Shown: piece by piece, positions 3,387-60,252 of the stretch
Numbering within the stretch: position 1 is the stretch's first letter
How the letters are laid out: each line of letters starts with the position of its first letter
Origin: Acetofilamentum sp.
Lineage (GTDB): Bacteria > Hydrothermota > 32-111
DNA: 64,000 bases
Direction of reading: 5' to 3'
Assembly: GCA_020721805.1 (NCBI GenBank)
Contig: DYMB01000003.1
Span: 35,921 to 99,920, forward strand
The notes under the pieces: generated by a model
What the model was told of the DNA's origin: nothing
What the model saw: only the letters and a program-made list of their open reading frames with translations
The model's database searches: none
Position numbers and translations under genes: made by a program

Positions 3387-3396
3387 GGAGAGAAGA

Positions 3397-10208: not shown

Positions 10209-10705
10209 TGATGGAGAGATTTAAAATTGTTGATTTTCAAAAAAAATTTAAACTTGGATTTCCGATAATTCTTTTCATTTTATTTTTTGACAGATTGACA
10301 AAAATTTTGGTTGCTAAAAATATGGAGATAGGTCAGAGTATAGATGTTTTTGGATGGTTTTTCAGGTTGACTTATGTTTTAAACCCTAATTTCGCTTTTT
10401 CCATAAGAATAGGTAATTATTGGATAATGTTGATTATGAACCTTCTTGCGTTGTTTATTCTTCTTTTCTACTTTTTAAAAACAAAATTTTCTACCATAAA
10501 GATAATTGCTTTGTCTATGATAATCAGTGGTGCTTTTGGAAATAATTTTGATAGAATAAAAACCAAAGAGGTTGTTGATTTTATAAATCTTGGAACAAAA
10601 ACATGGAGATTCGCTATTTTTAATGTAGCGGATTCATTCATCTCGATAGGTATAGTTATACTCATATTCTCACTTCTCTTTTTAGAAAAGAATGAAAATT
10701 GTTGA
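10205..10705 (+). CDS. lspA: lipoprotein signal peptidase II
   Basis: It has LspA motifs (NPNFAFSI, GAFGNNFDR, FNVADSFI) and four TM segments. ileS-(dksA-like)-lspA is a conserved synteny. Start taken at the MMMERF ATGs overlapping the upstream stop. Confidence 0.8.
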   Translation: MMMERFKIVDFQKKFKLGFPIILFILFFDRLTKILVAKNMEIGQSIDVFGWFFRLTYVLNPNFAFSIRIGNYWIMLIMNLLALFILLFYFLKTKFSTIKIIALSMIISGAFGNNFDRIKTKEVVDFINLGTKTWRFAIFNVADSFISIGIVILIFSLLFLEKNENC

Positions 10706-30038: not shown

Positions 30039-30040
30039 AA

Positions 30041-30910
30041 ATGAAAAAAGATGTAAAGGTAATTACGATTCTTGTCCTTTCACTTATAGTTGTAATTTTG
30101 CTCGGGTATGTTGTAATTGGAAATATGCGGAAAGAATCTTCAACGAATTTCATAAATTCAGGTAAAATTCTTGCAACAGTTAACGGTATAAATATTTACG
30201 AAGGATTGTTGACTCTCATAAGTCAAGGACAGCCCATACCTGAAGAGAATAAAAAAGTTATTCTTGATGAATTAATAGATAACATTTTGATCTATCGGGA
30301 AGCGTTAGAAAATAAAATCGATGAGGATACGACCTTGATGAATCAATTAAGATTACAGGAAATAATAACCATAGCGAGTAAATATATGGAAAAGAAAATA
30401 AAAGATCTTCCCGCTCCAACTGATGAAGAATTGAATGCATACTATCTTGTAAATAAACCTTATTTTGATAGAAATGTTAAAATAGGTATAATAGCTTTAC
30501 CACCTAACAAAGTTTATGCTGATTCTATTTACAATGTTATAAAGAGTGGGAAAAAGGGATTTGAAACCGTCGCAAGGGAAGTTTCCCTTGATAAACAGAC
30601 CGGTTCAAAAGGTGGTGTCATAGATAATTGGTTTACCTTCAAACAACTGGCGAGTGTTGGTTTTGTTAATGTCGATTCTGTCGCTTTTTCACTGAAAAAC
30701 AAGGGCGACATCTCTCTTCCTTTTGTTGAGGCTAATGGTTCCTACTACATAGTTAAACTTTTAGATTATAAACCATCCAACCTTAATGAAAACACAATAA
30801 AGGGACTTTTAATGAATCTTCTTTATTCTGAAAAATCAAAGTCCTATATTCAATCCTATACACAGCGATTAAGAGAAAAAGCAAAAATAGAATATAAAAT
30901 TGAAAATTAA
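30041..30910 (+). CDS. PpiC/SurA-family peptidyl-prolyl isomerase (paralog 2)
   Basis: 289 aa with an N-terminal TM/signal anchor, a SurA-like N-domain and a parvulin-like C-terminal region. Confidence 0.55.
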   Translation: MKKDVKVITILVLSLIVVILLGYVVIGNMRKESSTNFINSGKILATVNGINIYEGLLTLISQGQPIPEENKKVILDELIDNILIYREALENKIDEDTTLMNQLRLQEIITIASKYMEKKIKDLPAPTDEELNAYYLVNKPYFDRNVKIGIIALPPNKVYADSIYNVIKSGKKGFETVAREVSLDKQTGSKGGVIDNWFTFKQLASVGFVNVDSVAFSLKNKGDISLPFVEANGSYYIVKLLDYKPSNLNENTIKGLLMNLLYSEKSKSYIQSYTQRLREKAKIEYKIEN

Positions 30911-32165
30911 ATTTCTTGTTTTATTTTTATTTATTTTTTGTCTATCCGCTCAATTCATATGGGCGGATAGAATTTTTATTCAGATTAACGATTCTTTGAT
31001 ACTTGAGTCAGAATATAAGGAAAAATTAAAATCGCTTGAACAGAATTTTTCCCAAAATAAAAATCTCCTCGATTCGCTTAAAGAAAATCTGATAAATAAA
31101 CTGATAAACGATAAGATACTTGAGATAATCGCCGATAGGGAAAGTTTGAATATAGATACATCGATTCTTTTGAAAGAGGTTGAAAAAAGAATTTTTGATC
31201 TTAAATCTAATTTTAAAGATAGTGTTGAGTTTGAAACCTATTTGAAGCAGAATGGGGTTATGTTGAAAGATTTAAAAGAAAATTATTTGCAGCAGGCTAA
31301 AAATATCTATTTAAAAAGGCAGATACTCGCTAAAAGTATGACAAAAATTTATGTGAATGAAAACCAGATAAAAAAATTTTATGAGGAGAATAAAGATTCT
31401 TTTATAGTAAAACCATCCGCTGATATTTTTCATATTTCTTTTGTTATTAAACCGGATTCTTTAAGATTTATGGATCTTTTACAAAAATTTGAATCCATAG
31501 TTTTTGAACTGAAAAATGGAAAGGATTTTTCACAACTTGCCAGAGATTATTCTGAAGATATTTACGCAAAGAATGGTGGAAATGTCGGGTATAAAAAATA
31601 TTCCGATCTTTCAATCGAACTTGGTAGTTTCCTTTTTCAAAACAAAAATTCTGATACCGTTCTTTTTACCCAATCAAGGAATGGATTACATATAATAAAG
31701 GTTTTAAGTTCAAATGATGATTCGATAAATTTCAAACAAATATTTTTAAAGATGCCTTTAACGAGAGAGGATTCTCTGGCAACCTATAACAGGGCTAAAG
31801 ATATAAGGAAAGATATATTGAACAATAAAATTTCCTTTGAGAACGCTGCAGAAAAGTTTTCCGATGATATTTCAACGAAAGATAAAGGTGGATTTATTGG
31901 AAAAGTCTATTTTGAGATGTTGTCAGAAAATTTAAAAGATATATTGGCAAATCTTAAAGAAAATGAAATTTCAAATGTTGTTAAAGGTGATTTCGGGTAT
32001 GAGATTTTTTTGGTTAAAAATAAGACTGGCGGTGATATAAGTCCATACGAGGAAGTTAAAGATTTTATCGCATCTTTTCTTGAAAATAAGAGAATCGAAG
32101 AAGAGATTGAAAAAATCGTAAACAAAGAAAAGAGCAATTCCTTTATTATGATATATTCCGAATGA
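30900..32165 (+). CDS. SurA-like peptidyl-prolyl isomerase (paralog 3)
   Basis: 421 aa with a signal peptide and two parvulin-like segments (IFHISFVIKPDS... and GDFGYEIFLVK). It lies immediately upstream of pdxA, as surA does in E. coli. Confidence 0.65.
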   Translation: MKIKFLVLFLFIFCLSAQFIWADRIFIQINDSLILESEYKEKLKSLEQNFSQNKNLLDSLKENLINKLINDKILEIIADRESLNIDTSILLKEVEKRIFDLKSNFKDSVEFETYLKQNGVMLKDLKENYLQQAKNIYLKRQILAKSMTKIYVNENQIKKFYEENKDSFIVKPSADIFHISFVIKPDSLRFMDLLQKFESIVFELKNGKDFSQLARDYSEDIYAKNGGNVGYKKYSDLSIELGSFLFQNKNSDTVLFTQSRNGLHIIKVLSSNDDSINFKQIFLKMPLTREDSLATYNRAKDIRKDILNNKISFENAAEKFSDDISTKDKGGFIGKVYFEMLSENLKDILANLKENEISNVVKGDFGYEIFLVKNKTGGDISPYEEVKDFIASFLENKRIEEEIEKIVNKEKSNSFIMIYSE

Positions 32166-41956: not shown

Positions 41957-42015
41957 GGAAGCAGGATTGTCTTTTTGAAGTGTGTAGTATTTAAGACAAT
42001 TTTAAACCTGCTTCC
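41957..42015. other. long nested imperfect hairpin in the M16-cdd intergenic region (possible terminator / RNA structure)
   Basis: GGAAGCAGG-ATTGTCTT ... AAGACAAT-tttaaa-CCTGCTTCC. An A-run precedes it but no clean T-run follows on the + strand. Confidence 0.4.
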
Positions 42016-42102
42016 ATTATAAATTTAAATCCTTAAAAGATTTTTGTCAATATCTTAAATAATTTTTATTGAAATATTTTTTATGGTAGATAAAATAATA
42101 AT

Positions 42103-42486
42103 ATGGACGGTTCTAAAAAAATAATAGATAGATTGAAAAAACTTGCAGAGAAAAGTTATTCGACCTATTCACATTATCGTGTTTCATCGATACTCTTCTC
42201 TGAGGATGGGAAAGAATATTATGGTGTGAATGTTGAAAATGCTTCTTATTCTTTAACCATATGTGCTGAAAGAAACGCTTTTTTTAATGCGATAACATCC
42301 GGTGAGAGGAAATTTAAAGAAATATATATATATGCTGATTCGGATACACTTCCCTTTCCCTGTGGCGCATGTTTACAGGTTATGGCTGAGTTTGTTGATG
42401 ATGATTTTAAAGTGATCATCGTTTCAAATAAAGAAAAAAGGGAATATAGATTCGGTGAACTTTTTCCTAAAAGATTTGAATTATGA
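42103..42486 (+). CDS. cdd: cytidine deaminase
   Basis: 127 aa with the zinc motifs CAERNAF and PCGACLQVM. Confidence 0.9.
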   Translation: MDGSKKIIDRLKKLAEKSYSTYSHYRVSSILFSEDGKEYYGVNVENASYSLTICAERNAFFNAITSGERKFKEIYIYADSDTLPFPCGACLQVMAEFVDDDFKVIIVSNKEKREYRFGELFPKRFEL

Positions 42487-43583
42487 AAAACATTTTTATT
42501 CCGCTTATAGTCTTTTCTCTTTTAACATCATGTGTAAAAAACTACAGTATCCAGAAAACAGGATACGATCCTTTCAAAGCACAACGGGATATAGAACTAT
42601 TTTTTTTTTCAACCTATCTGTATGAAATTAAAATTGAAAATGATCCCGTGAAGATAAATTTAACCGGTCAAAAGGATCCCTTGAACAGATTTTCGGTTAA
42701 GGGATATTTTAAAATTTTAAACGAAAAGAAAAATCTCGATCATATTTTTACAGGTGTTGAATGGATAAGAATAAAGGATTTTAAGAAAGATGAGATTGAA
42801 TTTTTTGATGTGATAGATTTTATTGAAAATATTTTTGATAGAAACTCTTTACAATTTTTCTCATACGATGAAAAAAAATATATTTTCAAGGTCAAAATAA
42901 ATACAACGATATTCGATCCTGTGAATTATCTTCAAAATGGATTTCTTACCTATTATCCAAAACAAAAGAGAATAACATTTCAAATTGAAAACAATGATAA
43001 TTTTTTTGTTTCAATAGAAAAAGATAATATAAAAACTTTCAAAATTCTAAACGAATATTATAATTCCGGCAGGTTGGTTGGAGGTCCTCCAGAAAATCTG
43101 GAAATGTTAAAAAAAAGGATTCTTGAATTCGATATAGGGAAAATAACAGATGGTATTCTTTATTTGAATTCTGATTTAAAAAGAGTGAATTTCGATTTGA
43201 ATATGTTAAAAGAGGATTCACTCTCGTTTTATACTTTTGATTATGTTTTAGCGTTAGATGATACCTCAGGTATAGTCTATTTGAATTTTGATGTGAGGAA
43301 TACGGTTAAAATCAAGGAAAAAATTTTAACCGTTGCCAAAAGAAACGATATTTATATTGAAAGACATAATGGAAGTTGTGATATTCTTTTTTATAACATT
43401 GAACTTAGCGATGATCGTCAACTTGTTTGCAAACTTGGAAAATTTGCTTTTTTTGCAAAATATACCACAGTTGATAAAATTTTAAAGATAAGGGATGTTA
43501 ATGAAAAATTTGTTTCGTTCATTCTAAGCGTAAATGAATTTCCATTCGATTTTAAAAATTTATATTTTAAGGAGGTTGAATGA
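42483..43583 (+). CDS. hypothetical lipoprotein
   Basis: 366 aa with signal peptide and lipobox LLTSC. No recognisable catalytic motif. Confidence 0.4.
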   Translation: MKNIFIPLIVFSLLTSCVKNYSIQKTGYDPFKAQRDIELFFFSTYLYEIKIENDPVKINLTGQKDPLNRFSVKGYFKILNEKKNLDHIFTGVEWIRIKDFKKDEIEFFDVIDFIENIFDRNSLQFFSYDEKKYIFKVKINTTIFDPVNYLQNGFLTYYPKQKRITFQIENNDNFFVSIEKDNIKTFKILNEYYNSGRLVGGPPENLEMLKKRILEFDIGKITDGILYLNSDLKRVNFDLNMLKEDSLSFYTFDYVLALDDTSGIVYLNFDVRNTVKIKEKILTVAKRNDIYIERHNGSCDILFYNIELSDDRQLVCKLGKFAFFAKYTTVDKILKIRDVNEKFVSFILSVNEFPFDFKNLYFKEVE

Positions 43584-43753
43584 TAGAAAAAAAACTACTC
43601 GATATCCTTGTCTGTCCTAAATGTAAAGGTGAACTTATATATGATGAACTTAAAGATATTTTGATATGCAAAAAGGACAAGATCTATTTTGAAATAAAAA
43701 ACAATATACCAATAATGGTTCTTGAGAAAGCAAAGAAACTTGATGAAAATTAA
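43580..43753 (+). CDS. Trm112-like (UPF0434/YcaR) small zinc-ribbon protein, absent from the ORF track (57 aa)
   Basis: It translates to MIEKKLLDILVCPKCKGELIYDELKDILICKKDKIYFEIKNNIPIMVLEKAKKLDEN. The LLxILVCPxCKG motif is present. ATGA overlap upstream, and the next gene's ATG overlaps its end. Confidence 0.7.
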   Translation: MIEKKLLDILVCPKCKGELIYDELKDILICKKDKIYFEIKNNIPIMVLEKAKKLDEN

Positions 43754-46700
43754 ATTTTTCCTTTTTTTGGCATTCTTTTCTATTCTTCTTGAAAGTAGAG
43801 TATTAAGTTATAATGATGAACAAAGTGTTATAGTAGAATATTATCCCAAAGAAAAAATCTCCGATCTTTTAGATTTTGAAAAAGAGGATGATCACATAGT
43901 AAAGAATATCTATATTAATGTACCGGATGGTAAAGTTGATGTAAAAGTTGTTTTTGAAGGTAAAGAAAAAGGAAAAAATTTTTATGGTAATTTCGATTAT
44001 AAAAAAACCAACGCTATTTATAAAAAAGAGTTTGTTTATGCATCAAGACAGAGAATACTGCATTTGAAAATTTATCCTGTTTATGCATGCGATAAAGAGG
44101 ACCTTTACTTTTATTCAAAATTTAAAATAGAAGTAAAATTTGAAAAAAAACTTGAAAAAGAAGAAGAAGCAAACCCATTGACACCTTCATCTGTTAACTC
44201 GAATTTTTTTTCAACCGCTTTTCACTATCCTAAATTTGAAGAATTGAAGATAAAATACTATTTGAAACTTGAAATACTTGAAGATGCTCTTTACAGGATA
44301 GAGTATGATGATCTTAAAAATGCGGGATACAATCCCGAGTTGATAGATCCCAAAGAGATTTCTCTCTTTTCAAGAAGAGATCTTTTTTTACCCGCTGATA
44401 CTCCAGATATGTTTTACTTTAAAGATCCAAAACCTGAACCTTTTATTTTTTTTGGAGATGATGATAACCGTTTCGAAAAGGGCGAATATTTTATTTTCTA
44501 TGGGAGATCGATAAAAGGGAAAGGGAAAAATTTTTATTCATCCATAGATCTCTACAATAATCCTTTTACAGATTACAACCAATATATTTTAACATTCAAC
44601 AAAGATGAACAGGTTAAAATTAAAGAATTTACATTTTTAAATTCAGGTGGTGATTCCATCACAGAACTTGTAAAAATTTTTAGATACGATTCGATAAATC
44701 CACTTATGGCAGGTTTCGGATGGGCATGGAGGAGTTTTGAACTTAAAAAAGACTCAACGATTTCAGATTACATATGGAATTTTAAATTGGATGGAATAAG
44801 TTCAAAAACTGGTATTTTAACCGTCTCTTTCTTTTTTCAAACAGATTATAATGACACATTTGATATAGATATTGAGTTGAATGGAATAATAGTTGGAAGG
44901 GCATCCTCAAGGGGAGCTTATACGACACTACCCAAAGAATTTTCATTCAATGTTTTTAATCTTGAAGAGAATAATAGTTTAAGAATAATACCTTTGAATA
45001 CCGATAACAGGAATAAAACTTTTTACCTATGTTCCGTTCAAATAGATCACACTATCAACCTGAATCAGGCTGAAGAAGTAAAGATAGAAAACAAGAGTGA
45101 GGATAAAGATTTAGTTTTATATTCAGATAAAAAAGGATTTTTTCTCTATCAAAAAACCCCTTATGGTGATTATTTTGCCAGTGTAGGGAAAAATGAAAAG
45201 AGAATTTTTAAACTCTATCCAAACTCGGAAACATTCATTTCAACTCGGTTGAAAAAGGTTGACAGGATGGAATATGTTGATTGCACTGATATAGCAGATT
45301 TTTATGAGGGATGTGATGTTTTAATTATTACAAAAAAAGGTTTTAAAAATGCTACCAATTCTTATGTTTTGCACAGGAAAATGCAAAATGTAAAGGTAAA
45401 GGTCTTTGAATTTGAAAGGATAGATGATCTTTTCTCTTTCGGTATGAGACATTTTGCTTCCATAAAATCTTTTCTTTACTTTGCACAAAAAAGATGGCTG
45501 AATTTCCCTAAATATTTAATTTTACTTGGTTCGGGTTCATACGATTATAAAAACCGAAAGAATACATATGAAAACAGAAACATAGTTCCAGCGTATGAAA
45601 CCGGATATGGGGTTTACAAACTGGATCTTTTAACAACCTACAGATCGGAATGCACCGATAGGTGGTTTTCACTTTTAACACCTGACAACTATATTGACAT
45701 AATACCTGGAAGAATTACGGTTTTAAATCAAGATCAAGTCTATCCTGCTCTTAAAAAAATAATAGATTACGAAACAAAAACTCCAGTGGATATAAAGAAT
45801 AAAGCCCTTGTAATTTCCGATGATGAATACAGTTCAAGATTAACGAGTGATTATAACGATATTCTCTTTTTAAGTATGAGTGAGGAACTTTCAAATCTTC
45901 TTGGAAATATCTTTGCAGTTAAAAAACTTTATCTTACGGATTATAGGGGTGATCTTGAAAAAACCGATCACTGGCCATACAATCCCGGATTTAAAAGGGA
46001 TGTAAGATTCGTGTTAAGGGATATCTTATCCGATGGTGTAAACTTTGGTTTTTTTTACGGTCATGGTTCATACTACTCTTTGACCCATGAGCATATACTT
46101 GAATATCCTACGGATATAGATCTTTTCGACAACATTTTCAAATATCCTGTTTTTCTTTTTGGAACCTGTCAGGCTGGACAGTTTGATAACGATTATGGAT
46201 GTATTGCAGGTGATTTCCAGATCTTACCTTATTCCGGATTTTCAGCAACCATCGCTGCAACAAGAGCAACCGGTGCGGGTGAAAATCAAAACATACTTTA
46301 CAATTCTTTTGCACATGATCTTTTCCTCTATGGTGGTTATAAAACACTTGGTGAATACTATCTTTCTATGATAAACGCAAATAACAATATATACACATCA
46401 CATCAAATTTTTGGAGATCCATCGATGGTCATTAAAAAATATGCATACGATGTTGAAATATTGTCACCCGAAACATTAAACCTCGGTTCATACAACAAAA
46501 TAGGTTTCAAATCTCAAAACGAAAAAAATGATGAAATTTTTATAGATATTTATCAGCCTTTCTATACCGATTCACACGATTATACTCATATTTATCCCTA
46601 TTCTTATTTTTATTATACCAAAACCGATGGAGTATCCTATAAGATTAAAGATCTTTCAAAGGAAAATCTTTTCAACATATATCTACCCGATACTTTTTCA

Positions 46701-47411
46701 AACAAAAAATATCAACCTTTTATGAATATAACATCAGTTTATGAAGATGATACTTTAATCCATTCAAAGATAAAAAGGGTATATTATGTTAAAAAGAGAG
46801 AGGATGTTCTTTCCCAATCAAATATCAATCTTTACATCAATGGGGTCAAAGTATATGATACCATCGTGTGCCCCGATGAATATAAACTCACCGTGGAATT
46901 TTACTCTAAAAATGGATTATATACTTCAAATCTTGATGAATACAAACCTGTGGTATATTTTACATCCGATTATAAAAGAAATTTAAATTCATTCGTTTTA
47001 TATAAAGATACCTTTAAACTGGATCTTTTTGTTGATACAGCATACAGTTTCTTAGAAACACTTAGAGTCGTGCTTTACGATAATCTTCTAAAAAGATACG
47101 AAAAAAAAGTTTTTTTAAAACATCCAAAGGATAACCCAACTAAAGAAATTTATGTTTATCCGAATCCATTTGAGAATAGTTTTTATATAACTTTCACATC
47201 GAACTCATCTGGATTTATAATATACAGAATTATCGATGAGTATGGAAATCTTATTTTTGCAAACAGAAATGTTGTTAGAAAGGATTTCAACAGTTTAAAA
47301 GTTGAAATAAAAAAGAATATACCTTTGGGAGTTTATCTGCTATCAATCGAAATATTTGATATGGAGAATAATAGAAACTATTTTAAAAACATAAAAATCG
47401 TAAAAAGATGA
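43743..47411 (+). CDS. gingipain-like peptidase C25 (clan CD) with C-terminal T9SS sorting domain
   Basis: It has a signal peptide. The catalytic dyad context is YGHGSYYSL (His) ... FLFGTCQAGQF (Cys), matching gingipain TGHGSETAW ... FDVACVNGDF. The C-terminus VYPNPFENSFYITF...LLSIEIFDMEN is a Por_Secre_tail-type CTD. Confidence 0.8.
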   Translation: MKIKFFLFLAFFSILLESRVLSYNDEQSVIVEYYPKEKISDLLDFEKEDDHIVKNIYINVPDGKVDVKVVFEGKEKGKNFYGNFDYKKTNAIYKKEFVYASRQRILHLKIYPVYACDKEDLYFYSKFKIEVKFEKKLEKEEEANPLTPSSVNSNFFSTAFHYPKFEELKIKYYLKLEILEDALYRIEYDDLKNAGYNPELIDPKEISLFSRRDLFLPADTPDMFYFKDPKPEPFIFFGDDDNRFEKGEYFIFYGRSIKGKGKNFYSSIDLYNNPFTDYNQYILTFNKDEQVKIKEFTFLNSGGDSITELVKIFRYDSINPLMAGFGWAWRSFELKKDSTISDYIWNFKLDGISSKTGILTVSFFFQTDYNDTFDIDIELNGIIVGRASSRGAYTTLPKEFSFNVFNLEENNSLRIIPLNTDNRNKTFYLCSVQIDHTINLNQAEEVKIENKSEDKDLVLYSDKKGFFLYQKTPYGDYFASVGKNEKRIFKLYPNSETFISTRLKKVDRMEYVDCTDIADFYEGCDVLIITKKGFKNATNSYVLHRKMQNVKVKVFEFERIDDLFSFGMRHFASIKSFLYFAQKRWLNFPKYLILLGSGSYDYKNRKNTYENRNIVPAYETGYGVYKLDLLTTYRSECTDRWFSLLTPDNYIDIIPGRITVLNQDQVYPALKKIIDYETKTPVDIKNKALVISDDEYSSRLTSDYNDILFLSMSEELSNLLGNIFAVKKLYLTDYRGDLEKTDHWPYNPGFKRDVRFVLRDILSDGVNFGFFYGHGSYYSLTHEHILEYPTDIDLFDNIFKYPVFLFGTCQAGQFDNDYGCIAGDFQILPYSGFSATIAATRATGAGENQNILYNSFAHDLFLYGGYKTLGEYYLSMINANNNIYTSHQIFGDPSMVIKKYAYDVEILSPETLNLGSYNKIGFKSQNEKNDEIFIDIYQPFYTDSHDYTHIYPYSYFYYTKTDGVSYKIKDLSKENLFNIYLPDTFSNKKYQPFMNITSVYEDDTLIHSKIKRVYYVKKREDVLSQSNINLYINGVKVYDTIVCPDEYKLTVEFYSKNGLYTSNLDEYKPVVYFTSDYKRNLNSFVLYKDTFKLDLFVDTAYSFLETLRVVLYDNLLKRYEKKVFLKHPKDNPTKEIYVYPNPFENSFYITFTSNSSGFIIYRIIDEYGNLIFANRNVVRKDFNSLKVEIKKNIPLGVYLLSIEIFDMENNRNYFKNIKIVKR

Positions 47412-48712
47412 AAAAAATATTTATAATCTTATCTTTATTTTTTGTTATAAAAATTTTTCCACAAAAAAGAATGATGGATATCTTTTTTAAAGAAGAGAGG
47501 ATAGGTTATTATACTCAAAACAAAACTTTACAGGATTCTTTTTTTAAGGTTGAAGAAGAGAGCAAAATTAAGTTTAAAGTATACTCTAACGATATAGAGG
47601 TGGTTACAAATTCAACATCATTCTATGATAGAGAGTGGAAAATCAAAAAATTCTTTATAATGGTTAAAAATGAAAATTTAAACTTATATCTTAATGGGTT
47701 CACTCGAAATGGTAATCTGACAATAAAAACCAATATAACTGGTCTGGAAAAAATTTACAATCTGGAAGCGAAGAATAAAAGAATTCTTTTCAATATTGAA
47801 TCTATCGATAAAAATTTTTTAAATGAAAAATTTTATATTTTAAATCCGCTTACCGTTGAGCTTGAACCTTTTGATGTAAAATTTTTAAGAAACGATACTC
47901 TTAAAATAAAAAACAAAAAAATTGAAGTTTTTGAATATAGTTTTAAATCTAAAAATTCAGAATTTCGTGTATGGTTTGATAGGAACAACAATGTGGTTAA
48001 ATCTATTTCAAAAGAGAAAATAGAGATGGTGTTGACCGATTCTGTTAAGGAGGTTAAAAGTTATTTTAACATACTTGACTATTTTAAAATAAAAGCGGAA
48101 GGAAATTTTAGAAATATAAGAAAAGAAAATTACGCAAAATATATCATTAATGGTATAGAAAAAAAAAACCTTTCCAACCAAAGGCAGGAACATAAAAAGG
48201 ATACTCTCGAGGTTTTTAGAAATTCATTCAGGAAATGGGCTTTTGAAGGTATCAAAGATACTCTCTTCATATTACCAGATTCACAGATAATTTTGAACGC
48301 TGAAAAAATTTTTCAAGAAAGCAAAGGGGATACTTTAAAATATATAAAGAATGTGCTTAAATTTGTAAATAAAAAATTAAAAAAAACCATCTTTTCTGGA
48401 CTGATCTCTCCTGGCGAGATATTTAAAAGATCGTATGGAGACTGCACAGAGCATTCCCAACTCTTTGCGTCATTTATGGTAGCAAAGGGTATAAAGGTTA
48501 ACATAGTTTCCGGAATAGTTTTTTCAGAGGGAGAATTCTATTACCATGCATGGAACAATTTATTCTATAAAGGTAAAATATATTCCATAGATGCTGTCTT
48601 TAACCAGTTTGAAGTCGATCCTTCCCATATTGAAATTTCATCAGGGTTTCCTCCCCAGGAAGTTCTTCTTGAAAACATATCTGGAAAAATTGTAATAAGG
48701 AGAATAAAATGA
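47408..48712 (+). CDS. secreted transglutaminase-like (papain-fold) domain protein
   Basis: 434 aa with a signal peptide. The C-terminal transglutaminase core is present: YGDCTEHSQLF (Cys), YHAWNNLF (His) and a downstream Asp. Confidence 0.7.
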   Translation: MKKIFIILSLFFVIKIFPQKRMMDIFFKEERIGYYTQNKTLQDSFFKVEEESKIKFKVYSNDIEVVTNSTSFYDREWKIKKFFIMVKNENLNLYLNGFTRNGNLTIKTNITGLEKIYNLEAKNKRILFNIESIDKNFLNEKFYILNPLTVELEPFDVKFLRNDTLKIKNKKIEVFEYSFKSKNSEFRVWFDRNNNVVKSISKEKIEMVLTDSVKEVKSYFNILDYFKIKAEGNFRNIRKENYAKYIINGIEKKNLSNQRQEHKKDTLEVFRNSFRKWAFEGIKDTLFILPDSQIILNAEKIFQESKGDTLKYIKNVLKFVNKKLKKTIFSGLISPGEIFKRSYGDCTEHSQLFASFMVAKGIKVNIVSGIVFSEGEFYYHAWNNLFYKGKIYSIDAVFNQFEVDPSHIEISSGFPPQEVLLENISGKIVIRRIK

Positions 48713-49605
48713 AATTTTTTACTTTATTCTTTTCAATAATTTTGTTTATACTTTCATTTGCGGACCCTGTTATAATTGGATTTTCTGATGATGGGAAATA
48801 TTTTGGTTTCTATTATGAAACCGATATTATGGGCAACTTTTTTTCCGAGATCAAAATAGTTTCTTTAGAAAACAATAAACTGATTCTATATTTAAAACTC
48901 GATAGAGAAAAGAATGATTATACGGATTTGAAAGATGTTGAAAATATCTTTTATCAAAAATTTGGTGAAAATTTTAAGTTTAACGATAAAATTTCTTTTG
49001 TGAGATATTCCGGTTCACTGGATGAAGATAATTTAGTTTTTTCCAACGGTTTGAAAACCGATTTGAAGATTGAATATGAAAAGAAAAAGAATGAATATGG
49101 AACATATTCATATAACAGCATCCTTAAACAGAATGATGTTTTAAGGTTGAAGATAGATTCAAAAGTGATAGATATCTATTCCGTATATGTTTCTGAAAAT
49201 AACAAGGGGGTAATTGTTTTTAAGAGTAGAGAGTATGGATTGGAGGGAGAATATGTTGATTCCTACCATCCATTTTTTTTACATATAGATGGATTGAGTA
49301 TAGAGAAGGATGTTGAAAAAGAGATGGCTTTTAATGTAAACAAGGCTAAAAACATAATGAAGGATTTTTATGAGAAAACAGGTATATATCCACAGAATGA
49401 AACAGATTTTTTTAGATTTGGAAAGGTTCTGATAAATCCGGTTGATCAGAAAAAACCCGCGGTAATTTTTAGAACAAAAAATTTAAAGTATGATGAAAAA
49501 TATAATGGTTCGTTGATAGTTGAATATTTGGAAAGGGAAAATTACTATAATATGTGGTATTTTCTTAATGGTAATATAGTGAAGGTTGAGGGGGTATCAA
49601 GATGA
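48709..49605 (+). CDS. hypothetical secreted protein
   Basis: 298 aa with a signal peptide. It is translationally coupled to the upstream transglutaminase-like gene. Confidence 0.4.
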   Translation: MKFFTLFFSIILFILSFADPVIIGFSDDGKYFGFYYETDIMGNFFSEIKIVSLENNKLILYLKLDREKNDYTDLKDVENIFYQKFGENFKFNDKISFVRYSGSLDEDNLVFSNGLKTDLKIEYEKKKNEYGTYSYNSILKQNDVLRLKIDSKVIDIYSVYVSENNKGVIVFKSREYGLEGEYVDSYHPFFLHIDGLSIEKDVEKEMAFNVNKAKNIMKDFYEKTGIYPQNETDFFRFGKVLINPVDQKKPAVIFRTKNLKYDEKYNGSLIVEYLERENYYNMWYFLNGNIVKVEGVSR

Positions 49606-50270
49606 AAAATTTAAATTTATATTTTGATCACACATTTTTAAAACCTGAAGCGACTTTCGATGATATAAAAAGATTATGCGAAGAGTCGATAAATTATAGT
49701 TTCTATTCGGTTTGCGTGAACCAGTCATATGTGAGTTTTGCAAAAAGTTTGTTAAAAGGGAGTAATATAAAGGTTTGTGCTGTTGTTGGATTTCCTTTTG
49801 GTGCGAACGATACTGAAACAAAAATTTTTGAAACTGAAAGATCTTTGAAGTTGGGTGCGGATGAGATAGATATGGTTATGAACATAGGCTATATGAAATC
49901 AAAAAAATATGAATTTATAACAGAGGAGATAAGAAGAATAAAAAATGTTTGTGGTGATAGGATTTTAAAAGTCATAGTTGAGACTTCCCTTCTTAACCTT
50001 GAAGAAAAAAAACTCGTTGTAAAACTTTTAATGGAAGGAAATGCTGACTTTATCAAAACATCAACAGGATTTTCAACCTCTGGTGCAACGGTTGAGGATA
50101 TAAAACTTTTCAAAGATATTTCAAAAGGAAAAATTATGATTAAAGCGAGTGGTGGTATAAGGGATCTGAAAACAACTCTTTTAATGTTAGATGCTGGTGC
50201 TTTGAGGATAGGTAGTTCAAGTTCTGTAAAAATAATGAGGGAGTATTATGAATCCAATGGAAATAATTAG
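49602..50270 (+). CDS. deoC: deoxyribose-phosphate aldolase
   Basis: 222 aa. It has the Schiff-base lysine context FIKTSTGF, the KVIVET motif and IKASGGIR. Confidence 0.9.
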   Translation: MKNLNLYFDHTFLKPEATFDDIKRLCEESINYSFYSVCVNQSYVSFAKSLLKGSNIKVCAVVGFPFGANDTETKIFETERSLKLGADEIDMVMNIGYMKSKKYEFITEEIRRIKNVCGDRILKVIVETSLLNLEEKKLVVKLLMEGNADFIKTSTGFSTSGATVEDIKLFKDISKGKIMIKASGGIRDLKTTLLMLDAGALRIGSSSSVKIMREYYESNGNN

Positions 50271-51555
50271 GAAAAAAAGGGATAGTTTTGAATTGTCCTA
50301 TGATGAATTAAAATATTTCATAGATAACTATGTAAAAGGTAAAATACCTGATTATCAGGTATCAGCATTTTTGATGGCTGGATTTTTAAAAGGTTTTTCA
50401 GAACCCGAAACGAAATATTTAACTCAAATAATGATAGAATCGGGTGAAAGTTTTGATTTTTCAAATGTTGAAGGTATAAAGGTTGATAAACATTCAACGG
50501 GTGGAGTTGGTGATAAGGTTTCAATACCTTTGTTACCGATTCTTGTTTCGCTTGGATTTAAGATACCGATGGTATCGGGAAGAGGCTTGGGACATACGGG
50601 TGGTACTCTCGATAAACTCGAATCGATAGAAGGTATGGATGTTTATTTAACAAAAGAAAAGATGTATAAACTTGTAAAGGATATTGGTGGAGGATTTGGC
50701 GGACAGACAGAAAATTTTGTTCCAGCCGATAAATTTCTTTATTCTTTAAGGGATGTAACAGCAACAGTTGAATCGATACCGTTGATAACCGCATCCATTA
50801 TGAGCAAAAAACTCGCAGAGGGTATAGATTCTCTTATACTTGATGTGAAATGTGGAAACGGTGCCTTTATGAAAGAGTTTTCCGATGCGAAGATTCTTGC
50901 AGACAAAATGTTTGCAATAGGTGAATCGATGGGGAAAAAAATGGTTTATATTATTTCTGATATGAATCAGGTGCTTGGAGAGTATGCTGGGAACGGATGC
51001 GAAATTTTCGAATCTCTTGAAATTTTAAAAGGAAATATAAAAAATGATGTTTATAAATTGCTTGAAGCCATATCGGTTCTTTTAATGGAAAGAAATCAAA
51101 TCGGTTCGAACTGTGATGAAAGAAGAAAAAAGTTTAAAGATACTATAGAAAAAGGGTATGCCTATGAAAACTTTTTAAAAATTGTTTCCGCTCAAAAAGG
51201 AAAAACGGATAAATTGAAAAAAGAGGATCTCTTTTATCAAACTTCAATAAATGTAAAATCGAACAAAAAAGGTTATATCACTTTTTTTGATACCTATAGA
51301 ATCGGTTTATCACTGATACATCTCAAAGCTGGAAGGTTCAAAAAGGAGGATGGGATAGATCATAAAGCAGGTATAAGAGTTTATAAAAAACTTGGAGAGA
51401 TGGTCGAAAAGGGTGATACTATATTTGAAGTTTTTGTTGATAAGAATGGTGAATATCAAACAAGCATTGAAATGCTTAAAGAATCGTTTAAGATTGAGGA
51501 TAGTTTAAAAAATTTTGGAAATGTTGAACTTATAAAATTTATAAAGGGAGTTTAA
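50248..51555 (+). CDS. pyrimidine-nucleoside (thymidine) phosphorylase
   Basis: 435 aa. It has the phosphate-binding motif DKHSTGGVGDKVS and the TP-family N-terminus IIRKKRD...LSYDELKYFIDNY. Confidence 0.9.
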   Translation: MNPMEIIRKKRDSFELSYDELKYFIDNYVKGKIPDYQVSAFLMAGFLKGFSEPETKYLTQIMIESGESFDFSNVEGIKVDKHSTGGVGDKVSIPLLPILVSLGFKIPMVSGRGLGHTGGTLDKLESIEGMDVYLTKEKMYKLVKDIGGGFGGQTENFVPADKFLYSLRDVTATVESIPLITASIMSKKLAEGIDSLILDVKCGNGAFMKEFSDAKILADKMFAIGESMGKKMVYIISDMNQVLGEYAGNGCEIFESLEILKGNIKNDVYKLLEAISVLLMERNQIGSNCDERRKKFKDTIEKGYAYENFLKIVSAQKGKTDKLKKEDLFYQTSINVKSNKKGYITFFDTYRIGLSLIHLKAGRFKKEDGIDHKAGIRVYKKLGEMVEKGDTIFEVFVDKNGEYQTSIEMLKESFKIEDSLKNFGNVELIKFIKGV

Positions 51556-53186
51556 TGAAAAAGATAACTTTTATTTTTATCTTCTCCTTCTTCTTAATGA
51601 TATTTTGCGAAGAATTTATAGATGTAAAAGATTTAAAGATAGGGATGAAGGGTTATTGTAAAACGGTTTTTCATAAAACCGAGATAGATTCCTTTGGAGT
51701 TGAAATAATAGACATAGCAAGGGATTCATCTATGGAGATGATAATGGTAAAATGTTTCGGTGAAAACATTGAAAAAACTGGTATAGCCCAGGGGATGAGT
51801 GGAAGTCCAGTATATTTTGATGGGAAACTTGCAGGTAGTTTGAGTTATACATGGGATAATTTAAAAGAACCTGTCGGAGGTGTTACACCGATAGATAAGA
51901 TTCTTCAGTTGAAGAATTATCAGGATTTGAATAAAGAGACAAAATACCATCTTAAAGAAATATCGCTTCCCTTGATGGTTTCTGGTTTAAATGAGGATAT
52001 GATCAAACTTGGTAACAATTTAAAAATTTTCCCCCAAAATTCTATAATAACAACTGCTACGAATTTAAAGATTAAAAATGAAAAAAAGTCTGAACTTTCA
52101 CCAGGAAAAGCCATCGCTATAAAACTGGTTGATGGAGATTTTGACATTTCCGCTATAGGAACTGTAACATATGTTGAAAAGGAAAATGTCTATTCTTTGG
52201 GGCATCCTTTCACATTGAAAGGAGAGGTGAATTACCCGGTCTCTGAAGCCTATATATATACTGTCCTTCCCAAAAATGATCTTTCTTTTAAAATGGGTTT
52301 TCCACTTGAAGATAATGTTGGAGTGGCAACACAGGATAGAACATATGGGGTGCTTGCTAATCTGGAAAAAAAGGTTGATATGATAAAGGTCAAAATTCTT
52401 ATGGATGATAATGTTTATAATTTTTCTATAGTAAACGATAAAGATATCGTTTCATCCTATCTACCCTTCCTTTTTCTTTCTGCGATTTCAAAAAATTATA
52501 AATCTTCTGGAAACCTCTCCGTTAAATATTATTTTGATTTTAAATTCGCTCAAAAAAAGGATATAGTTTATGAAAATATGTTTTCAGGTCCAGAGATAAT
52601 GCCATCTCTATTTTTCGATCTTACAAACATTATAAGAAACTATATATTGAATGTTTCAAAAGATTTAAAACTTGATTTTGTGATCATAAAAACCGACATT
52701 AACGAAGAGGATCTAAATTTTTCAATAATCGATATAAAGACTGATAAAAAATATTATTTTCCCGGAGAAGAGATAAAATTGAAGATTATTCTTGAAGGGA
52801 AGAATGAAAAAGAAATCATCCATGAAGTTGGCGTAAAAATACCTGATAACTTTAAAGAGGATTCTTTAACTTTGAGAGTTTCAGGTGGCGCTGACGATTT
52901 ATTCCCTATTATGATAGAACAGGATGAGTTTTTTTCTTTTGAAGAACTCAAACTCTTCTTTGAAAACATAAAAAGAAAAAACAGTTTAAATGTAGAAATT
53001 CTATCTTTCAATAGAGGCTTTAAAGATAATGACTTTAAATTTAAAAATTATCCTGGAACTTTTATTAAGGAACAGATCAAAATGGGTAAAACATTTTTGG
53101 ATGAAAATGTTATTTCTGAAAAAAAAATTTTTACAGATTTTGTTGTTAAGGGTGATAAAAGTATAGTTTTGAAATTGTGGAGGTAA
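51555..53186 (+). CDS. secreted protein with SpoIVB-like (peptidase S55) serine-protease motif
   Basis: It has a signal peptide. GIAQGMSGSPVYFDGKLAGSLSYTW closely parallels SpoIVB [25 protein letters not shown] (catalytic Ser). A candidate His lies in GYCKTVFHK. The C-terminal 430 aa are of unknown function. Confidence 0.5.
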   Translation: MKKITFIFIFSFFLMIFCEEFIDVKDLKIGMKGYCKTVFHKTEIDSFGVEIIDIARDSSMEMIMVKCFGENIEKTGIAQGMSGSPVYFDGKLAGSLSYTWDNLKEPVGGVTPIDKILQLKNYQDLNKETKYHLKEISLPLMVSGLNEDMIKLGNNLKIFPQNSIITTATNLKIKNEKKSELSPGKAIAIKLVDGDFDISAIGTVTYVEKENVYSLGHPFTLKGEVNYPVSEAYIYTVLPKNDLSFKMGFPLEDNVGVATQDRTYGVLANLEKKVDMIKVKILMDDNVYNFSIVNDKDIVSSYLPFLFLSAISKNYKSSGNLSVKYYFDFKFAQKKDIVYENMFSGPEIMPSLFFDLTNIIRNYILNVSKDLKLDFVIIKTDINEEDLNFSIIDIKTDKKYYFPGEEIKLKIILEGKNEKEIIHEVGVKIPDNFKEDSLTLRVSGGADDLFPIMIEQDEFFSFEELKLFFENIKRKNSLNVEILSFNRGFKDNDFKFKNYPGTFIKEQIKMGKTFLDENVISEKKIFTDFVVKGDKSIVLKLWR

Positions 53187-53187
53187 A

Positions 53188-55131
53188 ATGAAGAAGAATT
53201 TAACGATGATCTTTATATTTTTTACTTTTCTCTTTTTTAATCTTTATGGTATCGAGACGGGGAAAATTATAGATGAACCATCAAACAATATTTATAATTT
53301 GAAAGCAAAGGATGGGATCCTTATCTCAAATGAAAAAATAAAAAGAGGATTCTCATTAAAACCGACCAAATACGATATTCTTGATCCGATTTATTCTATG
53401 CTTTCTTTTGAGGATAAAATTATCGTGGGAACAGGAGAGAACTGTTATATAATAAATCTTACCAAAAATGATACCATAATTAAGTTAAATCGGGGAGAGA
53501 TGGTCAGAAATCTTATACAGGTTGACAAAAATAGTTTTCTCGCATCAGTTGAACCTGATGGGATAATCTTGAAATTTGATTTAACCAAGAGAGTGGATAC
53601 AATATTTAAAAAGAAAAATTCTGTTATAAATGGTTTTGAAAAGATAGATGGTCAGATTTTTATCCTTATAGATAATGAGATATATAAATTTAAAGATAAA
53701 AATGTTGAAAAAATGTTAAAGGTTGATGATAGAAATATAATAAAAATAAAGAGACTGGATAAAAACATATTTTTTTCAACAGAAGGTGATGGTAAATTTT
53801 TTAGATTTAATGATGGAAAAATAGAAAACATAATAAGTTTTAAAAATAGTGAGATTTTAGACTTCTATTCACATAATGGTCAATATTATATTATTTTAAA
53901 CACAAATCTGAGCAGATCAACAAACCCGGCTGAAGATGACTACAATTCTTATATAATAAAGATCGATAAAAATCTTATAGATACACTTTATACTTTTGAT
54001 TCCTTTATTTCAAAAAGTGTAAAAGTTTTCGATGGTATAGTTTTGTTTTTATCCTCTCCTTTGAAATACTATTATTTTGATTTTGAAGATCTTTATTTTG
54101 GTGGAAATTTCGAATACGATTTTATAACATCAGTTTTAACCTATTTTGATAGCATACTTTTTACAACCGAAAAGAATCAATTTTTTACACTGGGAAAATC
54201 AAAAGGTAAGATTGAATTTTTTTCAACCGTGTTGGATTTGAATTCCCTGTGTAAAATAACCTCCATCTACTCTCAATTTTCCGGGAAAGAAAAATTTTAT
54301 TTCAGGTTTGGGAATTCTGTAAATGTTGATGAAACCTGGACAAGTTTTTATCCGGTCCTATCCGGATACAATTCAAACCTCCCGGCATCAAGATTCTTTC
54401 AGTATAAAGTCATATTTGATGATGAAAATGATTTTTTAAAAAAAGTTGAAATCTATTTTAGTGGAGAGAACAGAAAACCTAAAATTAAAAGAATAAAAAT
54501 CTATCCTCCGATGATCTTTCCAGATAATGTTAATTTACAGAATGTTAAGGTTAGCAGTATAAAAAAGAAAAACCTTTATCCGGAGTTTTCAAACGAAAAC
54601 ATTGTAAAGATAGATGAAAAGAGAATCTTCGTAAAATGGGAAGCATTTGACCCTGATATGGATAGGATCTCCTATTCTTTGTATTTGCTTGATAGTCACT
54701 ATTTTTATCCTGTTAGTAGATCCTTTGAGGATAGCAACTATATTTTAAACTATGATTTCCTACCAACTGAAAAATATCGATTGAAATTGGTTGCATCAGA
54801 TTCTCTTGATAATCTCTATCCACATCAAACCGAGTTTATTTCTGAAGAGTTTTTAATAGACAACACTCCACCTGTTGTGAAAGATGATATCTTTGAGAAA
54901 AATGTTTTAAAATTTTATGCTATAGATCAACATTCCTTTATAAACAAAGCTGAAATCTCTTTAAATGGAAATGAATTCTATGAAATTTTACCTGTCGATC
55001 AGATCTATGATAATAGAGAGGAGAGTTTTAAGGTAAAGATAAAATGGGATGGTAATGAGCCTTTAAACATAATCGTAAAGGTTTACGATCTTTATGGAAA
55101 TATATCTTATCTGCAAAAGTTGTTAAAATGA
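53188..55131 (+). CDS. hypothetical secreted protein (repeat/beta-propeller-like N-region, Ig-like C-region)
   Basis: 647 aa with a signal peptide. I see no catalytic motifs. Confidence 0.4.
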   Translation: MKKNLTMIFIFFTFLFFNLYGIETGKIIDEPSNNIYNLKAKDGILISNEKIKRGFSLKPTKYDILDPIYSMLSFEDKIIVGTGENCYIINLTKNDTIIKLNRGEMVRNLIQVDKNSFLASVEPDGIILKFDLTKRVDTIFKKKNSVINGFEKIDGQIFILIDNEIYKFKDKNVEKMLKVDDRNIIKIKRLDKNIFFSTEGDGKFFRFNDGKIENIISFKNSEILDFYSHNGQYYIILNTNLSRSTNPAEDDYNSYIIKIDKNLIDTLYTFDSFISKSVKVFDGIVLFLSSPLKYYYFDFEDLYFGGNFEYDFITSVLTYFDSILFTTEKNQFFTLGKSKGKIEFFSTVLDLNSLCKITSIYSQFSGKEKFYFRFGNSVNVDETWTSFYPVLSGYNSNLPASRFFQYKVIFDDENDFLKKVEIYFSGENRKPKIKRIKIYPPMIFPDNVNLQNVKVSSIKKKNLYPEFSNENIVKIDEKRIFVKWEAFDPDMDRISYSLYLLDSHYFYPVSRSFEDSNYILNYDFLPTEKYRLKLVASDSLDNLYPHQTEFISEEFLIDNTPPVVKDDIFEKNVLKFYAIDQHSFINKAEISLNGNEFYEILPVDQIYDNREESFKVKIKWDGNEPLNIIVKVYDLYGNISYLQKLLK

Positions 55132-58359: not shown

Positions 58360-60252
58360 TCATTCACCCAATATCAAAAATTCTATTCTCCTGTTTAAAG
58401 CCCTACCATCTTTTGTTGCATTGTCAGCAATAGGCATAGATTCGCCAAATCCTTTAGCGATTATCCTTGCAGGATCTATACCCCTTGAAACAAGATAACT
58501 TCTCACAGATTCCGCTCTTGCCTGTGAGAGTAAAAGGTTGGATGTTTCACTACCTACAGAATCGGTATGTCCCTGAATCTCTATCCTTACCTTTGGATTA
58601 TCTCTTAAAAGTTTTACAGCTTCATCAAGAACAGAATATGAAGTTGGTAGGATGGTTGCTCTTCCAGATTCAAAATAGATTCCATGCAGAGTTATTTTTC
58701 CACCCTTTTTAAGCATCTCTATGTTTAAAATGAGTGTCTTATCGGCTTCAATTACTATAGGTTGAGCATATGTTACATAGCCGTCAAGTGTTGCAGCGAT
58801 AGTGTAAGTTCCTGGAGTGAGATTGATCCTGTAAACACCAGTTTGAGGATCTGGTGAAAATGACTGTATATCTGTTTGAGGGAATGAGATCTTTGGAACT
58901 ATTATCTCTCCTGTTGTTTTATCGACAACCTTTCCTGTTAAAGTTCCCTGAGGAATCACTTTTTTGTTTAAAGCAAAATCAAGAATCTTTGTTTGACCTT
59001 TTTCTATTATTATTCCCTTTTCCTGCCATTTGAATCCCTCTCTTTCAACTCTTAACCTTATACTTCCAGGTTTTACCTCTATTGAATATATTCCAGTTGA
59101 ATCTGTTACTATCTGCAAAGTTTCACTATAACCTGGTAATGTTATAATCGCTGATAAAGGTTTTCCACTTTCTGCATCTATTATCTTACCTGTTATAAGA
59201 GTTTTAAGTTCCTTTTTTATCTGTGCTATTTCCTTTTTGAAATCATAATAATATGTTAAACCGAAAAAGAATTTCCAGTCCGGTGATCCTTCCCATCCGT
59301 TATTCAAATAGATTGAATCGGAAATAGAATTGTATGTTGGTCTTAAATCTGGAACAAAATTTGAGATCCTGTAATCTGCCGCGATATCTATAACAAGACC
59401 TATTGGTGTATCAAACCTTATACCACCTGTTGCATTATGGACGAATCTTTCATCAAAAAGGTTTGCAAACATATATTTTTGTCCATAAACTTCAATAAAA
59501 GGTATAAAGGAACCAAATCTTATAGAGAATGTTCCAGAATAATCAAGCATTGTAGGGTTGGTTATCGAGGAGGGTAATTTTGCAAATTTTGTATAACCAC
59601 CATTTATGTTTATTCCAAGTGGAACCTGAGTCTCGGTAAGAAATGAAATTAAAATTTTTCCACCAAAATCCTGACCACCGTTTGTAAAATGCCTAAATAT
59701 TCCACCATAGTTTTTAATATAATCTATTGAAAATGATGAGGAATTATTTTTTAAAGTATCAAAAGGATCCCCGGTATTAAGATTGTAAAATCCATAAACT
59801 CCGATATCCGCATTTCTTGTTGAACCAAAAAAGCCTCCTGTTGTTAACTTTAAACCTATCTTTGTGTCTCCAAAACCATAACTTCCATAGTTTCTATTTT
59901 CATTCTCTCTACCGGCTGCCTCTGGAGTATCTATACCATCAATATGTAAAGATGATACTACATTCACTTCAAGCCAGTTTGTGAATGAGTATGATACCCC
60001 ATAAAGCATACTTGCAAAAGCGTAGGTATCATAGCAGTAATGCACAGCCGAATCTATTGATGATATATATGAAACCTGAAAATCTTTGGATGAACCATAT
60101 AAATGGAATCCAATACTCAATCTCTGTTCTTTAAGTATAGCATCAATCGAATGTATGTAACCTGAATTGATGTTTAAAGATGGAGCAGAAAAAATATTGA
60201 TGTTAAAAATGATTAACAGAAACAAGAATGTTAAAAGTTTTTTTCCTTTCAT
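58360..60252 (-). CDS. OmpA-family outer-membrane protein with two carboxypeptidase-regulatory-like (CarbopepD_reg) domains
   Basis: 630 aa with a signal peptide and two GK(V/I)xDxxTG...beta-sandwich repeats. The C-terminal OmpA domain is TDSVGSETSNLLLSQARAESVRSYL...NRRIEFLILGE. Confidence 0.8.
   Translation of the reverse strand: MKGKKLLTFLFLLIIFNINIFSAPSLNINSGYIHSIDAILKEQRLSIGFHLYGSSKDFQVSYISSIDSAVHYCYDTYAFASMLYGVSYSFTNWLEVNVVSSLHIDGIDTPEAAGRENENRNYGSYGFGDTKIGLKLTTGGFFGSTRNADIGVYGFYNLNTGDPFDTLKNNSSSFSIDYIKNYGGIFRHFTNGGQDFGGKILISFLTETQVPLGININGGYTKFAKLPSSITNPTMLDYSGTFSIRFGSFIPFIEVYGQKYMFANLFDERFVHNATGGIRFDTPIGLVIDIAADYRISNFVPDLRPTYNSISDSIYLNNGWEGSPDWKFFFGLTYYYDFKKEIAQIKKELKTLITGKIIDAESGKPLSAIITLPGYSETLQIVTDSTGIYSIEVKPGSIRLRVEREGFKWQEKGIIIEKGQTKILDFALNKKVIPQGTLTGKVVDKTTGEIIVPKISFPQTDIQSFSPDPQTGVYRINLTPGTYTIAATLDGYVTYAQPIVIEADKTLILNIEMLKKGGKITLHGIYFESGRATILPTSYSVLDEAVKLLRDNPKVRIEIQGHTDSVGSETSNLLLSQARAESVRSYLVSRGIDPARIIAKGFGESMPIADNATKDGRALNRRIEFLILGE

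Follow-up and report, generated by a model that had tools for sequence, protein, structure and literature searches.

The 64-kb stretch of DNA analysed here (positions 35,921 to 99,920 of contig DYMB01000003.1, hereafter the window) carries a block of five plus-strand open reading frames (ORFs) at 42483-49605, the longest of which encodes a cysteine peptidase of family C25, the family of the gingipains. An earlier note on this DNA had read the block as a secreted protease island, in which a gingipain-like peptidase exported by a type IX secretion system (T9SS) forms an extracellular processing or cross-linking module with a transglutaminase-like protein and two further exported proteins. The question raised by the locus is whether the C25 protein is such a cargo protease or a component of the secretion machinery itself, and whether its neighbours share in its function. 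Sequence comparison makes it highly probable that the 1222-residue C25 protein is a homologue of PorU, the T9SS sortase. The combined statement, in which a divergent PorU homologue acts as a T9SS sortase and its neighbours are adjacent only through a fixed gene order, is considered probable.

PorU is a surface cysteine peptidase, gingipain-like in sequence, and is both a component and a cargo of the T9SS (PMC5445135, PMC11285876). It keeps its own C-terminal domain (CTD), is held at the surface by PorV, and cleaves the CTD of cargo proteins while attaching anionic lipopolysaccharide (A-LPS) to them (PMC5445135, PMC11285876).

Identity of the C25 protein

The C25 ORF spans 43743-47411 on the plus strand. 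Translated from its ATG, which is also the start chosen in the public annotation, it yields 1222 residues, one fewer than the earlier note had counted, and an alternative TTG at 43722 would yield 1229. The catalytic domain occupies residues 527-896 (45321-46430) and is matched by the Pfam model Peptidase_C25 (PF01364) with an E value of 1.9e-53. The match to the model of the T9SS sortase PorU (NF033707) is far longer, with residues 180-1227 aligned to model positions 7-1093 of 1095 (224.6 bits, E 1.8e-66). Related loci were taken from GTDB genomes, the nearest of which are annotated as metagenome-assembled genomes (MAGs) of candidate division WOR-3 or TA06. All seven lineage members are matched by NF033707 (best E 4.5e-79), each with a score below the curated cut-off.

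Nine sequences, including genuine PorU proteins from Ignavibacteria, Marivirga, Flavobacterium and TA06, were aligned with MAFFT. The window protein is collinear with the four genuine PorU proteins from about residue 170 to the C terminus, and its layout comprises a signal peptide, an extra N-terminal region of about 170 residues, PorU-type N-terminal domains, the C25 domain, post-catalytic domains and a type-A sorting domain. The catalytic dyad, rightly described in the earlier note as intact, consists of His774 (46062-46064, in the motif YGHG) and Cys809 (46167-46169, in GTCQAG). Both residues are invariant in all nine aligned sequences and align with the GHG and the cysteine of Porphyromonas gingivalis PorU (PDB ID: 6ZA2). 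The motif GSGS[YF]DYKN, Arg657, Arg841, G891-D-P and the CTD motifs are likewise invariant in comparison with the genuine PorU proteins.

A direct phmmer search of PDB sequences with the C25 protein gave no match, and the comparison with known structures was for this reason made with profiles. A profile built from the lineage alone found a single PDB entry at E <= 0.01. This was 6ZA2, the P. gingivalis PorU, matched with an E value of 4.8e-10 and across the catalytic region alone. With the broader profile A2, which has the genuine PorU proteins among its members, the alignment covers residues 30-1154 of the 1156 in 6ZA2; gingipains R and K are matched by A2 only over the catalytic core of about 260 residues. 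Propeptide_C25 (PF08126) was not found in the window protein, whose catalytic domain begins at residue 527, and is present in an unrelated C25 protein (P0008). The window protein is thus of PorU type over its full length, has no Propeptide_C25, and belongs to a lineage whose profile matches PorU and not the gingipains. It is therefore, with high probability, a divergent PorU homologue, and the candidate of a gingipain-like cargo protease was rejected.

The likeness to P. gingivalis PorU (PG0026, 6ZA2) extends to the length (1222 residues here and 1156 in the 6ZA2 chain), the collinear domain order, the signal peptide, the dyad in the same motifs (GHG ... C), the arginine residues and a type-A CTD, which in the window protein scores below the model thresholds. 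The window protein differs in its extra N-terminal region, in lineage-specific insertions such as HWPYNPGFKRDVR, which are partly common to the TA06 protein of locus L011, in having no adjacent porV, and in its host, which belongs to candidate division WOR-3 and not to Bacteroidota. The gingipains RgpB and Kgp (PDB IDs: 1CVR and 4RBM) share the family (C25 in MEROPS), the dyad and the T9SS CTD, but they carry an N-terminal Propeptide_C25, have their catalytic domain near the N terminus, and lack the N-terminal and post-catalytic domains of PorU.

To our knowledge, what is known of PorU comes almost wholly from Bacteroidota. The window homologue adds a distant data point on which residues are truly invariant (GSGS[YF]DYKN, the dyad, the two arginines and the CTD motifs), and it flags a group that curated models label merely "C25 family cysteine peptidase". 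The corrected identity also keeps a component of a secretion machine from being taken for a virulence-type protease island. The find, a new and very divergent PorU sortase in a lineage-frozen gene array, is mostly an ordinary one.

Sorting domain and secretion context

The type-A sorting domain of the PorU-like protein covers residues 1138-1222 (47154-47408) and shows the motifs YPNPF, GVYLL and a C-terminal KIVKR. The positions YPNP1139-1142, G1196, Y1198 and K1218 show no variation and line up with the CTDs of genuine PorU proteins, and a hidden Markov model (HMM) that we built for the CTD agrees with the alignment. In four of the seven close relatives the CTD is matched by PF18962 (best E 3.6e-7). 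The T9SS-type CTD named in the earlier note is supported in this way, with the reservation that the window domain itself scores below threshold.

Our CTD HMM detected no further CTD in the window and recovered the known cargo in control loci. A contig of another assembly, CCWRPW010000014.1 (GCA_973313645.1, 106.6 kb), encodes a protein identical to the window C25 protein and also a 634-residue BNR-repeat protein (L105, 18461-20365). In window numbering the latter lies at about 71,864-73,768, which is 7.9 kb past the 3' end of the window and about 24 kb from the PorU-like gene. Besides a signal peptide and BNR-type SxDxGxxW repeats it shows a canonical type-A CTD (GVYFVKV...KKVVTIK) ending GVYFVKVNDGINNFTKKVVTIK, and it carries a precomputed Por_Secre_tail match. 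These features make it a likely T9SS cargo and a candidate for cleavage by the PorU homologue. In the Ignavibacteria MAG locus L015, porV and a T9SS-dependent M6-like cargo are found beside porU.

The earlier note held that the organism must encode a T9SS. Use of a T9SS is supported on two counts, the homology of the C25 protein to a component of that system and the gene for a canonical CTD cargo on its contig; no core gene was detected in the parts that were scanned. A literature search found no paper joining WOR-3 with type IX secretion or T9SS. By analogy with P. gingivalis, the PorU homologue would pass the inner membrane by the Sec pathway via its signal peptide and the outer membrane by the T9SS via its own, probably uncleaved, CTD. 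At the surface, His774 and Cys809 would cleave the sorting domains of cargo proteins such as the BNR-repeat protein. The CTD-cleaving activity is accordingly a prediction taken over from the P. gingivalis system.

Several observations weigh against the combined statement. The PorU model score of 224.6 bits is well under the NCBI curated equivalog cut-off of 420, which is exceeded by the control proteins of L015 (877 bits) and of the TA06 MAG locus L011 (475.7 bits), and also by the Marivirga and Flavobacterium PorU loci, both of which have an adjacent porV. The protein shares only about 20% identity with the PorU proteins of Bacteroidota. The window CTD is sub-threshold with PF18962 (22.6 bits against 27) as well as with TIGR04183 (15.8 against 23). 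A PorV query taken from L015 found nothing in the window or in close relatives; the same query recovers the adjacent porV in L013, L014 and L015, and the TA06 locus L011, like the window, has no adjacent porV. Pfam and NCBIfam searches of about 35 of the roughly 55 window proteins, together with precomputed Pfam annotations of about 18 kb of flanking sequence (about 82 kb inspected in total), revealed no SprA/Sov, GldK/L/M/N or PorV/Q/Z/T/P. The window proteins scanned have housekeeping functions or no match. Finally, the five genes are adjacent in all close relatives, which would agree with a functional link between them but is uninformative in this respect.

Two further proteins were noted in the context of secretion. 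A 945-residue protein encoded about 3.7 kb upstream of the TA06 PorU (L011, 293-3130) has a weak C-terminal match to our CTD HMM (E 0.0012), which suggests a putative T9SS cargo near porU in the TA06 lineage too. In the window, a 630-residue protein on the minus strand (58360-60252) carries two CarboxypepD_reg domains, a PEGA-like stretch and a C-terminal OmpA domain. As a candidate PorE it was rejected, as only its C-terminal 140 residues or so, the CRD/OmpA part, are matched, with 93 bits against 600. Its N-terminal 350 residues or so carry no domain assignment.

Neighbouring genes and the fixed gene array

The five ORFs of the block were found on the plus strand at the positions that the earlier note had given, with overlaps of 4-11 nt. 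Four of their products have N-terminal signal sequences, in which a basic residue precedes a hydrophobic stretch, and the two exported proteins noted as unknown are g366 and g298. The predicted lipoprotein g366 (366 residues, 42483-43583, plus strand) has an invariant lipobox Ser16-Cys17 (Cys17 codon at 42531-42533), and its N-terminal domain is tentatively LolA/LppX/LprG-like; the protein could be placed in no known family. The exported protein g298 (298 residues, 48709-49605, plus strand) shows a signal peptide and the conserved motif GFSDDGK-F-F-YE, has no relative in Pfam, NCBIfam or the PDB, and is represented by only three representative clusters among 1.84 billion proteins. Profile searches with g366 and g298 against the PDB and Pfam gave chance-level matches only. 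Identity at the first of two levels of relatives is about 44-47% for g366 and g298, about 60% for PorU and about 57% for the transglutaminase-like protein; at the second level it is about 25-30%, about 42% and about 43%, respectively. Thus g366 and g298 diverge faster than the other two, and both are predicted envelope proteins that occur in this WOR-3 lineage alone.

The transglutaminase-like protein (434 residues, 47408-48712, plus strand) is an exported two-domain protein, and its description in the earlier note as a transglutaminase-core protein was correct. Transglut_core (PF01841) is matched with 31.3 bits against a cut-off of 23, and the triad Cys346 (48443-48445), His380 (48545-48547) and Asp395 (48590-48592) is invariant in ten sequences. 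DUF6134 (PF19630) matches the N-terminal part of eight of ten family members (best E 8.1e-6) and has no match in the window protein itself at E <= 1. An AlphaFold2 model was obtained with a mean pLDDT (predicted local distance difference test) of 69.5, and of 80-90 in the N-terminal domain. In Foldseek comparisons this modelled domain (residues 20-220 or so) is beta-barrel-like and resembles DUF1849 (PDB ID: 6NTR) and, more weakly, LolB, LprG, YmcC and EPDR1. The C-terminal domain resembles transglutaminase-like cysteine proteases (3ISR, a putative cysteine protease of C. hutchinsonii, as well as TglA 9CRN, PNGase and vasohibin).

The family is widespread. A metagenome scan found 440 relatives of the 434-residue protein, most of them full-length at 20-25% identity, and 74 distant loci (L029-L102) were kept, with 613 kb of flanking sequence in total and at least 4 kb upstream in 25 of them. 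A C25 gene near the transglutaminase-family gene was found in none of the 74. Because the pairing is absent from these loci it is peculiar to the lineage studied here, and hence offers no evidence of a joint function. In about three-quarters of the distant loci with enough downstream sequence, an ABC (ATP-binding cassette) ATPase gene follows directly. Its product has about 250 residues, its end lies about 720-880 nt past the transglutaminase-like gene, and it is usually followed by a gene for a PF16949 "ABC_tran_2" protein of about 570 residues. Locus L085 (9899-13823) is an example, in which genes for an epimerase and a DUF6178 protein come next. When HMMs of the ABC ATPase and the PF16949 protein from these loci were run against the window, they matched nothing. 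The window protein resembles the DUF6134 and Transglut_core proteins in its two-domain build, intact Cys-His-Asp triad and full-length homology at 20-25%, but its gene lies between porU and g298, with no ABC genes detected in the window. The arrangement of transglutaminase-like protein, ABC ATPase and PF16949 protein looks like a conserved, uncharacterised operon. This exported family with a beta-barrel and a transglutaminase-like domain, which usually heads an ABC-transporter operon, may prove more useful as a lead than the finding that prompted the analysis.

The 57-residue protein of the block (43580-43753, plus strand), noted earlier as a Trm112-like mini-gene, is probably of Trm112p/YcaR type (UPF0434), with a PF03966 match of 42.9 bits against a cut-off of 22. 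It has a CPKC motif and a third cysteine, has no signal peptide, and is 57 residues long in all close relatives. With YcaR/UPF0434 it shares its length (57 residues against a 60-position model), the CPxC motif with the third cysteine, and a score above the Pfam gathering threshold. It differs in that the NCBIfam YcaR model (NF008806) is matched below its equivalog cut-off (44.5 bits against 126) and the scan of its neighbours turned up no methyltransferase gene. From its sequence it is presumably cytoplasmic, and its gene has no detectable link to secretion or to the other genes of the block.

The block is flanked directly by two genes of nucleoside catabolism on the plus strand, namely cdd for cytidine deaminase (42103-42486; Pfam dCMP_cyt_deam_1, E 1.8e-15), which overlaps g366 by 4 nt, and deoC for deoxyribose-phosphate aldolase (49602-50270; Pfam DeoC, E 1.2e-18), which overlaps g298 by 4 nt. 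These two genes are context, and cdd is outside any secretion function. Across the block the junction overlaps are 4, 4, 11, 4 and 4 nt. The translational coupling described in the earlier note is thus real, but it runs through a head-to-tail array of 13 genes from cdd (42103) to ffh (58357), with junctions of -23 to +1 nt, so that the five genes are not set apart. The order in the array is cdd, g366, trm112-like, porU, the transglutaminase-like gene, g298, deoC, deoA, two unknown genes, glycerate kinase, ddl and ffh. The sole intergenic gap in about 20 kb is the 152 nt between a pair of M16 peptidase genes and cdd. It holds a hairpin 3' of the M16 pair (41958-42015, plus strand; -21.6 kcal/mol, z = -3.95, 15-bp stem with an internal loop) and a sequence match to a promoter-like site, TTGAAA-16-TAAAAT (42069-42096, plus strand), directly before cdd. 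This hairpin-bearing gap is likely the boundary of the transcription unit. Since the five genes have no gaps between or beside them and are part of an array from cdd to ffh, an operon confined to them was rejected.

In close relatives, from 60% down to 40% PorU identity, the whole block is collinear (L001-L010 and L023-L028), with the shared order M16a, M16b, cdd, g366, trm112, porU, the transglutaminase-like gene, g298, deoC, deoA, g543 and g647. In L011 and L012, at 26-27% PorU identity, none of the neighbours is detectably shared. The adjacency of the five genes is kept no better than their adjacency to the nucleoside-catabolism genes cdd, deoC and deoA, and is uninformative on function because the housekeeping flanks are equally conserved. 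A housekeeping block conserved across the phylum had been named in the earlier note as a finding that would speak against its reading; such conservation was found at the level of the lineage and not across the phylum. The five genes have a GC content of 0.26-0.30, and of 0.23-0.28 at third codon positions (GC3), equal to the values of their neighbours, and a horizontally acquired island was rejected on account of this native composition. The co-location would follow from a small, AT-rich genome that packs its genes in long co-directional arrays, here of 13, whose order is fixed across the lineage.

Could the neighbours nevertheless take part in the attachment of cargo? In this explanation the partners of PorU in attachment would be g366, the transglutaminase-like protein and g298, in a complex specific to the lineage and instead of or besides PorV, PorZ and PorQ. 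The porU gene of the window has no adjacent porV, unlike those of L013, L014 and L015, and the three neighbours are all exported and all adjoin porU across 40-100% identity. The predicted LolA/LprG/DUF1849-like folds of g366 and of the N-terminal domain of the transglutaminase-like protein would also fit, as such lipid-carrier-like domains could deliver an anchor lipid in the way that PorZ delivers A-LPS in P. gingivalis (PMC8545088). However, synteny that extends just as well to the housekeeping flanks carries no information, the transglutaminase family is tied to ABC transporters and not to T9SS in other phyla, and PorV could be encoded elsewhere in the genome. An attachment complex of this kind is considered unlikely. 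Its stricter form, in which the WOR-3 PorU works without PorV, PorZ and PorQ and the lipid-carrier-like domains of its neighbours feed the sortase, is very unlikely; if true, such a neighbour-assisted sortase would amount to a new type of attachment complex for the T9SS.

The extracellular processing or cross-linking module, with the C25 protein as a gingipain-like secreted T9SS cargo acting beside the transglutaminase-like and the two other exported proteins, is a further candidate explanation. It can point to the C25 domain with its intact dyad and CTD, to four exported products in one block whose adjacency is kept in all close relatives, and to a PorU model score below the curated cut-off. 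Yet the C25 protein has a PorU-type architecture over 1050 residues, with the catalytic domain behind PorU-specific N-terminal domains and with no Propeptide_C25, and the lineage-only profile matches PorU alone in the PDB. Moreover, cdd, deoC and deoA keep their places as constantly as the neighbours do, and in the 74 distant loci the transglutaminase family never occurs with C25. A dedicated protease/transglutaminase module is not supported and must be regarded as quite improbable, and the term secreted protease island does not fit a block of native composition that has no boundaries of its own and whose flanks are equally syntenic. The protein might also be a PorU-like peptidase that has become a relic, or has been repurposed, in a reduced genome that has lost its working T9SS. 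This would agree with the highly divergent sequence below the curated cut-off, with a small genome (a related contig has 1.39 Mb) and with the lack of T9SS core genes in about 82 kb inspected, for which part of the window proteins were scanned directly. It is nevertheless the least probable of these explanations. Neither the dyad nor the CTD motifs vary among relatives at 40-60% identity, a sign that catalysis and T9SS targeting are both under selection, and the contig encodes another protein with a canonical CTD.

Further observations on the array and the window

The PorU homologue is split in two ORFs in one related locus (L024, 6282-10001, metagenome contig FWPV01000140.1), and the homologue of g543 is split in the TA06 32_111 contig (L007/L023; L007 15733-17405). 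In both cases near-identical loci are intact, and the split genes are possible pseudogenes or assembly errors. The genes g543 and g647 (window 51555-55131) belong to the same fixed array and are kept in all close relatives. A weak Peptidase_S55/SpoIVB-like stretch was found at residues 35-98 of g543, and g647 has no family match.

The window as a whole is AT-rich (GC about 30%), and almost every gene is on the plus strand. It encodes a 673-residue protein (10692-12713) matched by LptD_2 (PF19838, E 3.8e-23) and SurA-like peptidyl-prolyl isomerases (28365-32165), which together show an outer-membrane biogenesis apparatus typical of diderm bacteria. At 1355-5181 lies a trio of 2Fe-2S thioredoxin-like, Complex1_51K and [FeFe]-hydrogenase-type genes, and an Mrp/Mbh-type antiporter cluster with a MarR regulator is located 6-10 kb upstream of the window (L022, L104). 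The hydrogenase-type trio and the antiporter cluster suggest a fermentative, hydrogen-evolving anaerobe.

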